From an uncultured delta proteobacterium (GTDB taxonomy: Bacteria > Myxococcota_A > Polyangia > Polyangiales > Polyangiaceae), in assembly GCA_963716725.1 (NCBI GenBank), contig CAVQUB010000017.1, positions 19,863-83,862 on the forward strand: a DNA stretch of 64,000 nucleotides, read 5' to 3'. This document shows positions 27,001 through 30,000 of the stretch, piece after piece; position 1 is the stretch's first letter, and each line of letters opens with the position of its first letter. Position numbers: made by a program.

Positions 27001-30000
27001 GTGCGTCGAGGACTGGCACCGGCGACGCAGGCTAGCAGCGCGCGGGCTGGACTGCGGCGAAGATGCTGAAAATCGCTCATGGGTTGCCCGACCCCCGCTC
27101 CCGAGGCAGGCTCCCGCGACGCGTCGCCGTCCGGCGCGAGGAGCGAGCACATGGTTCGGTTTCGTTGGCTCTACCCGAGCGTCATCACGTTGGGCGTCGT
27201 CGCCTGTGGCAGCGACAGCGGAGGGGGTGGCCCTGCTGCCGCTCCCGACATCATCGACATCGTCGCCGATGCGAATCGAGACGGGGTGGTCGACGAAAAA
27301 ACGGACCAAGAGCGCGAGAACGAATGGGACATGAAGGTGGGCGCGTCGTTCATCGCCAACCTCGACGACGACGACATGGACGGCAAACGCGACTGCGAGG
27401 ACGAGGTCATCAACGGACCAGCCGACCTCGCTGACCTCGCGCTCTTCCGGGTGAGCGCCTGGCCCACTGCGGCGGCCGACGCCGAGGGCGTCGTCAGCAT
27501 CGATCCCGAGGCTGCGGAGAGTGTTCGCATCTTCCGCGACAACCCCGACGGCACCCAGTCTCTGGTGCTCGGCAGCAAGGGACCCTGCACCTCCGCCGCC
27601 GACTGCACTTACGCGCTCGAATACCGCTTTCCCCAGGCCGAGGTCGTCACCGGGGTCACCTTCAGGATCGAGGGGCGCCGTTTCAAGGGCATGCCCATGC
27701 CGAGCCTCGAGCCCCAGGACGACGGAAAGAAATCACTATGGACCGGCGTGGTCGACGTCGCTTACTCGGTCGCCAAGGTGGGCACGGGCGAGCGCTACGC
27801 CACCAAAGACGTGCCCGACGGATTCGATCGCCTGAAGCTCCGCGTCGCGCCCTGGCTGATGTTCGGCAGCATGGGCCTGCATGACATCCTGTACTCGTCG
27901 TCGGCGTCCCCAGCGCTGGTCGAGGGCAACGCGGCAGCGGCCCAAGCTGCGAGCATCACCTACAACCCGTACCCCACCAGCCCCAACCAACCCGCTGGCT
28001 GGACGGACATCTGGACGGAGGACTTCTTCCAGACCGGCTGGACCGGCTTTCCGGGCCCGAACGGCACCGTTGTCGGGATGCGCATCTACAACCCGCGCCC
28101 CTGGGGTCGGCCTCCGCAGAACGCGACGCCCGAGGTCATGAAGGACTACCACCCCACACGTTGGATCTGGGGCAACCCGGAGAAGGGCCGGCCTGCCGCC
28201 GTGCTCGGGCCGGATCGCGGCGCCGCGGAGTTCTATAACTCGCAGAACTTCCAGTCGGGGAACACCCAAGACTCCCACGGCAACCACGATCTGGTGCCGC
28301 CGCACAAAGACTACCGGATGGGACGCATCATCCACGGCAACAAGGTGATGCAGAGTACTCAGGACTTCTACGTCGCCCAGGGTCTGCAAGGCCCGCCCAT
28401 CGTGCTCGACACGACCTGGCTCGCGGTCGAGCACGTCGACGAGTTCTTCCACTGGGTTCCGGCTGCCACGCCTCTCGGCTGGAAGCTACTCGTGGCGTCA
28501 CCCGGGCTGATGACCAAGATGTTGCAAGACTTTGCCGCCAAGGGCAGCGGATCGGCGACGCTGCACTCGGGCACCGGTGGCAACTTCGAAAAGACGGTCT
28601 CCGCCGCCCTGGCCGACACCCAGCTCATGCAGTGGAGTCAGCTTGCCGACACCAAGATCCAAGGCCACATCGAGATCATGAAGGCCGAGACCGGCATCAC
28701 GGATGCCGACATCATCGAGATCCCGACCTGGTTCGAAGATCTGGGCAACAACGAGAAGGTCGCCTGGAACCCCGGCATGGTGAACATGCGCCTGCTGGGC
28801 AACGTCGCCGACATCGCCAGGCCCTTCGGCCCGGACATCGGCGGCAAGGACCCCTTCGAAGAAGACATCCGAGAGCGACTCGGGACGCCGGCCAGTCAGC
28901 TGGGGTCCGACGGTCAGGGTCTGAAGATCTTCTTCACCGACGATTGGTTCTATCACGAGGCGTTGGGTGAGGTTCACTGCGCCACGAACGAGAGCGCTCC
29001 GGCGCCCTATGCTGCTGGCTTCTGGTGGGAGAGTGGAAAATGAGCGCGCTTCGTAAGTTGTTGGTGTCATCGATCCTCGGAAGCGCGCTCTTGGTCGCAC
29101 CGTCCGCGTTCGCCGATGGCATCAGCATCGCGGCCTCCGCGTTGCCGAACGAGACGCGCGCGAAGCTCGAGAACGACATCGCCGCCGCCAAGGCCTCACA
29201 GCCCAAGGCCTTCGTCGCCGTGAAGAACCTGAAGGGACATCGCCCCGAGCACTACGGCAAGAATCGCAACCCCTTCCCGACGGTCAGCCGAGAGCTGCGG
29301 GGGCTGGGCGCGCCGGCGCTGTTGCCCATGCTCGAGGCCCTGGCCTTCACGGCTCCCGATCGCGGCCAGCTCTCGGACGCGGAGTGGGACGCCCTCGCCA
29401 TTGGCATGCTCGAGGCCGTCGGCGTGATCAAAGACGCCCGCGCCGGCGCGGTGGTCGGCGCCATCTTCGAGTCGAGCTCGGTTCGCCCGGCGGTGCGCCT
29501 GGCGGCGGCGCGCGCGGCGGGTCGTCTGGGCGGCGACGCTCAGCTCGCGCTCCTCACCGGTCACGCCAAGAGCGGTGACTCGCTCCAGCTCGCGGCCGTC
29601 CACGGCTTGGGCGAGATGATGCGGCTCGAGGCCGCCAAGCATGTTGCCCAGATCTTGGGCAGCACCAAAGACGCCGCTGTCGCCGAAGCGGCCGCGACGG
29701 CACTCGGGACCCTGGGCTCGAGCTGGGGTTGGAAATCGCTGGGACCCAAGGCCGCAGCCATGGGCCTCGAGGTTCGCAAGCTGTGCGCGAACGCGCTGGT
29801 GCCCCGGGCGCTTCGCGGCAAGCAGAGCCTGCGCAAAGCGGCGGCCGAGTCCGTGATGATGGTGGAGCACCCGGCGACGCTGGATCTGCTCCGCGCCGAG
29901 CGAGCCGCGCCGGGAGTGGACGCGCGGGAGGTCGATGCCCTGATCGCCAAGGTCGAGCGCCAGCAGAAGCGCGCGCCCAAGTAGTCGATCAAGGCGCGTT

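Follow-up and report, generated by a model that had tools for sequence, protein, structure and literature searches.

The DNA analysed here, a stretch of 64,000 nucleotides that spans C17:19863-83862 and is called the window below, carries the gene of a peptidylarginine deiminase (PAD) predicted to be exported as a lipoprotein and, overlapping its stop, the gene of a HEAT-repeat protein that is likewise predicted to be exported. We put at roughly one in two the probability that this partner would act as a co-exported, substrate-mimicking inhibitor guarding the cell's own envelope. The genes, their pairing and co-divergence, the conserved residues and the confidence of the models were established by computation. 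The features concerned, numbered along the window, are the following.

27151..29043, + strand: PAD gene, encoding a 630-aa lipoprotein, a two-domain peptidylarginine deiminase (PAD_M + PAD_C)
27151..27207, + strand: type II signal peptide with lipobox Cys19, read from the sequence (Gly at +2 and +7)
27262..27594, + strand: PAD_M, residues 38-148, with an acidic calcium-binding-type motif (Pfam)
27826..29028, + strand: PAD_C catalytic domain, residues 226-626 (Pfam)
28021..28023, + strand: D291, equivalent to PAD4 D350 (alignments; W288, equivalent to W347, lies slightly upstream)
28432..28440, + strand: H428 and D430, equivalent to PAD4 H471 and D473 (alignment to PAD4)
28609..28662, + strand: PAD helix 487-504, predicted docking face (interface list; equivalent to PAD4 530-547, dimer face F541/W548)
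28978..28980, + strand: C610, equivalent to the catalytic C645 of PAD4 (alignment to PAD4)
29040..29984, + strand: partner gene, encoding a 314-aa HEAT/alphaRep-like solenoid with an N-terminal helical cap
29040..29114, + strand: type I signal peptide of the partner (A-F-A, with putative cleavage after AFA)
29256..29276, + strand: loop 73-79 of the partner, including Arg76 (codon 29265-29267); predicted to lie in the PAD active site (interface, conservation)
29718..29744, + strand: partner residues 227-235, among them Trp229, predicted to anchor the partner on PAD helix 487-504 (lowest-error contacts)

The PAD stop and the partner start share the ATGA at 29040-29043 (4-nt overlap). The first-pass annotation had described a PAD lipoprotein overlapping a 314-aa partner with a signal peptide and a HEAT_2 domain, and both descriptions were borne out by the 630-aa ORF with its lipobox-type Cys19 and Pfam PAD match, and by ORF reading and Pfam for the partner. 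The second pair that it reported on contig C27 was also found, including the frameshift, which is located near C27:99,395 and falls between the Gly-rich N-terminal part and the catalytic part of that PAD; this pair is 28–33% identical to the window pair, and same-type genes in two genomes of the same genus (L006, L014) are open across the frameshift region. As a chance control, every six-frame ORF in the genome itself was scored (26,240 in all): at E<=1e-5 a profile of window-like (type-1) partners matched 9, the top two being the neighbours of both PADs, and a broader partner profile matched 16. Named relatives were Polyangiaceae and other Myxococcales records. A scan for promoters and terminators gave none exceeding shuffled sequences, and neither gene had a match in NCBIfam or PADLOC. 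Metatranscriptome contigs of one study cover parts of both genes, and one of 303 nt crosses the PAD/partner junction; these are weak support for the two genes, as contigs cannot show a transcript and the runs were picked for containing this stretch. Contigs are lacking over most of 30107-32500, a gap that is given no weight as evidence because the runs were selected for holding both genes.

The enzyme by itself is a further member of the known PF03068 family. Pfam assigned PAD to the ORF at 3.9e-57 (194.5 bits, cut-off 25) and PAD_M at 2.3e-8, and the reported similarity to the human PAD4/3/2/1 chains was reproduced at 2e-38 to 4e-33. PAD_N had no Pfam match in this ORF, the PAD profile alignment to PAD4 starts only at about residue 100, and the linker from Cys19 to PAD_M is only about 15 residues long. 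The earlier label 'animal-type' is consequently valid at the level of the family and fails for the architecture: the protein is two-domain, and membership in the three-domain animal/cyanobacterial PADI group was rejected for lack of PAD_N. Cummings et al. (PMC8826395) group the two-domain type with sequences of fungi, actinobacteria and proteobacteria, apart from the clade of animals and cyanobacteria. Alignment to the PAD4 chain 3apn_A, whose 3-residue tag offset was checked by counting, confirmed D291, H428, D430 and C610, proposed earlier as catalytic residues, as the equivalents of the set Asp350-His471-Asp473-Cys645 named in Harris et al. (bioRxiv 2020.07.16.207027). Position 291 is Asp in 107/107 type-1 PADs, and 147/149 paired PADs have an intact D-H-D-C set; the remaining two are cut or frameshifted sequences. 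The window PAD also shares with human PAD1-4 and the three-domain cyanobacterial PADI the fold and the equivalents of W347 (W288), V469 (V426) and probably R372, all three described as PAD4 substrate-binding residues in a passage of PMC5314407; R316, invariant in 42 aligned PAD rows, is most likely the equivalent of R372 in a gapless alignment read by eye. By homology, this PAD would thus citrullinate peptidyl-arginine with the catalytic set of PAD4, and two bacterial family members are active: the cyanobacterial PF03068 PAD (cyanoPADI, according to a part of PMC8826395) and the Streptomyces citrulassin PAD (Harris et al., bioRxiv 2020.07.16.207027).

The AF2 model of the PAD has a pLDDT of 87.5, with a Foldseek TM of about 0.75 to human PAD4, and the enzyme carries a net charge of −37. 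The residue after D291 is mostly Phe or Tyr in type-1 PADs, whereas PAD4 has Glu, a calcium ligand. Human PADs are intracellular, whereas the window PAD is predicted to be exported: Cys19 is invariant in 42 aligned PADs, and a lipobox-like start was present in 102/120 PAD homologues. Cys19 followed by Gly at +2 and +7 would be of the outer-membrane type under the M. xanthus lipoprotein rule quoted in a passage of PMC5562445.

The partner has a Pfam HEAT_2 match (3.9e-8) and is modelled as a helical-hairpin solenoid with a pLDDT of 93. Its N-terminal hydrophobic stretch, already noted in the first-pass annotation, recurred in 130/131 library homologues, compared with 11/131 for an internal control stretch. 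The best structural matches are designed alphaRep proteins (top VIA Z 15.9, rmsd 5.3, 212 aligned); PDB searches gave only generic HEAT/alphaRep matches and no solved natural relative, and searches with the partner fold found no comparable complex in the PDB. Matches in the ESM Atlas are unnamed HEAT clusters, and a word search for longer homologues gave 28 matches, all generic long HEAT proteins with a PAD domain listed in none. Three related partner types could be distinguished, namely the window-like type 1, the shorter type 2 and type 3. They track the PAD clades, and types 2 and 3, which go with PAD clades other than that of the window, had been missed earlier. Type 1 is homologous to types 2/3 (hhalign probability 97.7, E 1.6e-12, 16% identity), with the Arg loop described below aligned.

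By the Pfam profile, a PAD is present in 79/301 phylum genomes, about twice as common as the earlier 24/201. In this phylum sample 88/94 PAD ORFs, both own copies counted and two duplicate loci removed, had an adjacent partner on the same strand, a count that is partly circular since the profiles were built from the same loci. Among the 88, two are paired solely with an upstream partner and one belongs to a tandem array with a common partner. Of the six unpaired ORFs, two lie at contig ends, one is the leading PAD of a tandem pair, two (L083) have no signal peptide and one (L086) lacks the catalytic residues. In a held-out set (the best 80 of 443 genome loci, with 13 near-duplicates dropped and one frameshifted locus counted twice), a type-1 partner accompanied 63/68 PAD ORFs, the misses being three at a contig edge and two true lone PADs (L129, L145), which are intact lipoproteins from genomes that carry 2 and 3 partners at other sites. 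When the 301 genomes were searched in reverse for partners, with 7-8 candidates scored in each, the strong type-1 matches fell at PAD loci without exception (45/45), the next matches being weak and in long ORFs, and 41/43 type-2/3 matches fell at PAD loci as well. The other two are orphan partners of one genus that keep the Arg loop, with no PAD found in genomes 94–96% complete. The claim of constant pairing therefore holds for most loci and has to give way at the signal-less and dead PADs, at a few lone ones and in the two genomes with orphan partners.

The two genes also diverge together. In trees of 106 type-1 pairs, none of the 50 and 33 well-supported splits of PAD and partner conflict, although related genomes do not count as independent cases and such congruence would follow from vertical descent by itself. 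In one lineage, represented by three assemblies, partner and PAD are read as one continuous frame that still contains the internal lipobox (fused ORF P0315, 985 aa; P0105, 96% identical; junction open in the DNA of L180). No third conserved gene was found across 80 loci, real neighbours occurring in at most 9/80; the largest neighbour clusters were considered as a third gene and rejected, as they are antisense shadows of the PAD and partner genes.

Such a locus resembles the SitA/SitI system of the same phylum, in which, according to a part of PMC5562445, an outer-membrane-type lipoprotein is followed directly by its cognate gene. The PAD might be handed to kin during outer-membrane exchange, or carried to prey on vesicles, and poison the periplasm there, with the partner serving as immunity protein; this would share its molecular step with inhibition and add an offensive role. 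Besides the sitAI-like arrangement of a lipoprotein gene and a small downstream partner, it is in line with paralogues that retain their own partners (one genome's two pairs are 30–36% identical to each other, compared with 74–84% within each type), with the tandem arrays at L058, L060 and L071, and with orphan partners. We consider it unlikely nevertheless. The window PAD has neither the SitA delivery region nor a variable C-terminal nuclease, nor any polymorphic toxin domain, its C-terminus being a conserved PAD_C at all loci; the trees are congruent, inheritance looks largely vertical, and whole families either carry the pair or are without it (f21 10/10 and f16 6/6, compared with 0/18 in both f2 and f29). 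No recurrent mobile-element neighbours were seen across the 80 loci, nor any PAD in viral contigs among 27 pattern matches. In addition, SitA toxins act in the cytoplasm, whereas the partner, in contrast to SitI, has a signal peptide. The locus departs from the SitA/SitI class in lacking a polymorphic C-terminal domain and in having a partner whose signal-like N-terminus (130/131) points away from action and neutralisation in the cytoplasm.

The complex of PAD and partner was predicted from our own 42-row alignments in three runs with three controls. The score was 0.94 in the three runs and 0.00 for the best of the controls; in a benchmark, the mark for this score was reached by 116/157 solved complexes and 2/215 mismatched pairs, which is only a rough guide here because the alignments were our own. 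Between runs 89% or more of the contacts recur, the partner has a pLDDT of 92 or higher, and the predicted interface has about 100 contacts and covers 16% of the partner chain. In this model, loop 73-79 of the partner contacts W288, D291, residues 425-428 (V426, H428), 601-606 (L605) and C610 of the PAD; the residue pair named in the interface is PAD 605 and partner 76, and we infer that the side chain extending to D291 and C610 is that of Arg76. The second part of the interface packs partner residues 227-235 (W229) on PAD helix 487-504. The model thus supports binding of the two proteins.

It is very improbable, in our estimate, that the two genes merely serve one envelope process under common regulation without a stable complex, the model being a confident error. 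Inter-protein mutual information over 106 type-1 pairs placed 0/100 top couplings in the predicted interface, where 1.2 were expected, and thus lent it no support; the top couplings follow the main clade split. Only 4/12 conserved polar or aromatic columns of the partner lie within the interface. HEAT solenoids are generic binders, mismatched pairs do occasionally reach the score mark, and structure models tend to put an Arg into an Arg pocket. The difference between 0.94 and 0.00 speaks against such an error, as does the modelled insertion of just that loop residue which is conserved in three partner types, and so does the in-frame fusion in three assemblies of one lineage. Adjacency, reverse searches, congruent trees, the fused ORF and the controlled complex model together uphold the earlier proposal of an exported PAD with a dedicated partner.

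The alignments, which preceded the model, had revealed a single conserved Arg in an exposed loop across all partner types. Arg76 is present in 96/107 type-1 partners and 132/143 library representatives (a set partly overlapping with type 1), and the equivalent position is Arg in 36/42 type-2/3 partners. Gln takes its place in five of the 11 type-1 exceptions; each of these sits on a branch of its own with Arg-bearing sisters, and the PADs adjoining them retain D-H-D-C. In most of the remaining exceptions the loop is shifted and an Arg lies close by. At the equivalent position, 5/42 type-2/3 partners have Ala. This bears on the idea that Arg76 is the physiological target of the enzyme, its citrullination releasing or switching the partner as an envelope signal, for instance upon a calcium trigger. 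Such a dedicated substrate would explain a highly conserved Arg at the modelled substrate position, genes that co-diverge, and the absence of any third gene recurring beyond close kin over 80 loci. However, Gln on five branches and Ala in 5/42 type-2/3 partners, beside intact PADs, indicate that position 76 need not be convertible, and the predicted interface of about 100 contacts would exceed the need of substrate turnover; we regard this idea, too, as unlikely. The first-pass annotation had left inhibitor, immunity protein and chaperone open, and the complex model together with the Arg/Gln pattern of the loop now favours a plug of the active site, although an activator or a substrate would fit the same model.

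Outside the active site, the predicted docking surface corresponds to the dimer face of PAD4. By gapless alignment L498, G505 and N533 are equivalent to F541, W548 and F576, which a passage of PMC5314407 lists as dimer-interface residues of PAD4. Since the W548 position is Gly, Ala or Asp in type-1 PADs and mostly Pro in those of types 2/3, no PAD4-type homodimer is expected. The partner might instead replace the second PAD4 subunit, binding the exposed dimer face and folding or stabilising an enzyme without PAD_N, which would need the partner for activity, with the Arg loop as only a transit lock or gate. Because the partner is predicted to use this face (it contains L498 and N533 and adjoins G505), this alternative stays alive, and we assign it a minor but appreciable probability. 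Strict operon coupling, the partner start lying within 5 nt of the PAD stop or overlapping it in 70/85 downstream pairs, accords with it, as does the co-occurrence of the clade-specific PAD residues M493/S496 with W229 on type-1 partners (W229 in 100/107). Lipase-specific foldases are a precedent, being all-helical periplasmic partners that are encoded directly behind an exported lipase and wrap the enzyme. In the window pair, on the other hand, the model puts a loop of the partner into the catalytic pocket, and PAD relatives function without a partner. Three actinobacterial plasmid PADs, which start with hydrophobic signal-like stretches, have no neighbour matching the partner profiles, so a two-domain PAD can exist without one; the two annotated Streptomyces PAD loci showed no partner, and a Streptomyces PAD gene moved alone to another Streptomyces worked (bioRxiv 2020.07.16.207027). 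Orphan partners persisting where no PAD was detected also argue against a folding or activating role that is obligatory. The roles of lock and stabiliser can, moreover, coexist.

Under the favoured inhibitor reading, the operon would yield two exported proteins, a PAD anchored by lipid, probably in the outer membrane, and a HEAT partner released into the periplasm. The partner would clamp PAD helix 487-504 via Trp229 and insert loop 73-79 into the substrate cleft, Arg76 acting as a substrate mimic and the Gln of some lineages as a product-like mimic. As a stoichiometric cognate inhibitor, it would keep a PAD of broad specificity silent on the cell's own envelope proteins until the site of action is reached; binding, inhibition and localisation are what we infer here. 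As a guess, the strong negative charge of the PAD would suit cationic, Arg-rich peptides or proteins.

Exported enzymes with a small co-encoded inhibitor that places a substrate-like segment in the active site are known from AprA-AprI, SpeB-Spi and staphopain-staphostatin. The inhibitor reading implies a similar working without any claim of homology; the window pair differs in that the enzyme is a deiminase rather than a peptide-bond hydrolase and the inhibitor a HEAT solenoid. The logic of exported enzyme and cognate inhibitor is thus already known, whereas its use for a PAD, and this inhibitor family, appear undescribed. Bacterial two-domain PF03068 PADs, such as the citrulassin PAD of Streptomyces described in the Harris preprint and those surveyed in PMC8826395, resemble the window PAD in PAD_M + PAD_C and in D-H-D-C; the latter differs by its lipobox anchor and HEAT partner. 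The neighbourhoods of bacterial PADs have been termed 'highly diverse' (Harris et al., bioRxiv 2020.07.16.207027). None of the terms 'secreted', 'signal peptide', 'HEAT', 'operon' and 'Myxococc' occurs in the main text of PMC8826395, and the literature searched, with subscription journals mostly beyond its scope, described neither a PAD paired with a HEAT protein nor any PAD from a myxobacterium; such neighbours could be listed in the supplements to PMC8826395 and to the Harris preprint (Figure S10 and Dataset 1, on gene neighbourhoods).

In humans, PADs serve as drug targets for rheumatoid arthritis and for disease driven by NETs. In excerpts of PMC9174705, PTPN22 is the only protein named as a suppressor of PAD4. 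A co-evolved protein plug, if true, would reveal how a PAD is silenced in nature and offer a starting scaffold for inhibitors. Cultured strains carry both variants of the loop (Arg in Polyangium fumosum DSM 14668, L143; Gln in Minicystis rosea DSM 24000, L098), so that the system is directly testable. The function known for bacterial PF03068 PADs is confined to one lasso-peptide case, and a lipid-anchored, partner-guarded PAD in about a quarter of the sampled Myxococcota genomes points to citrullination in the envelope or outside the cell. At slightly less than even odds, we propose that the partner family is a natural, dedicated PAD inhibitor which sits on the dimerisation surface with an Arg/Gln plug and could serve as a scaffold for human PAD2/PAD4, and that it marks widespread extracellular citrullination in predatory Myxococcota, possibly directed against prey or competitors.

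The two proteins of the pair differ in charge, the window peptidylarginine deiminase (PAD) having a net charge of −37 and its signal-peptide HEAT-repeat partner one of +10. Among homologues, the PADs were likewise strongly acidic (median net charge −35 with type-1, i.e. window-like, partners and −71 with types 2/3); type-1 partners were basic (median +6) and type-2/3 partners mildly acidic. The pair is surrounded in the window by the following genes.

23054-24664, + strand: lipoprotein-like ORF of 536 aa, no match in Pfam or NCBIfam
25109-27019, − strand: gene for an ABC-F ATPase, running divergently to the PAD gene
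30088-32220, + strand: ORF of 710 aa with a membrane segment at its N-terminus, a PEP-utiliser mobile domain and weak likeness to RedH/PigC
32186-33607, + strand: next ORF after the 710-aa ORF, no family match
33804: cysteine synthase-like PALP gene, following the preceding ORF

Homologues of the 536-aa ORF and of the ABC-F ATPase gene recurred in the closest loci only.

Several loci carried variants of the pair. Tandem PAD-partner-PAD-partner (type 3) and PAD-PAD-partner arrays were observed (loci L058, L060, L071 and L047), and at L081:3476-6788 (genome G230) a C-terminally extended PAD of 813 aa was accompanied by a type-2 partner whose signal is of the lipobox, not the cleavable, type. PADs resembling the second, divergent one of the window's genome bear long Gly/Thr-rich linkers and Cys-rich modules N-terminal to PAD_M (G000 C27:98,600-99,400; L005; L006; L014); that of L005 gave two matches (1.7e-17) to Somatomedin_B, a domain type of animal extracellular proteins. 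In one lineage, partner and PAD shared a single 985-aa ORF with the partner N-terminal (three assemblies: P0315, P0105, L180:3-2081), in which the PAD's own lipobox was retained internally; this ORF encodes either a genuine fusion protein or a read-through product with an internal start.

An unannotated PAD fragment (L174:5001-5708) lies amid recombinase genes on a Bacillus bombysepticus plasmid. Some PADs were found without a partner. The two tandem PADs at L083:3445-7535 (G230), which have complete catalytic sets, no signal peptide and a GC3 of ~0.6, are possibly a cytoplasmic type acquired separately. The partnerless lipoprotein homologue at L086:2925-4862 (G204) has lost the equivalents of W288, D430 and C610 and, judged from its sequence, is a pseudo-enzyme. 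Conversely, partners bearing the Arg loop (equivalent to residues 73-79 of the window partner, modelled in the PAD active site) occurred without PAD at L175:4843-5676, L176:4874-5710 and L177:5406-6473. Since the neighbourhood at L177 resembles that around the intact pair at L178 in a related genome, it suggests that the PAD was lost or moved there while the partner was retained.
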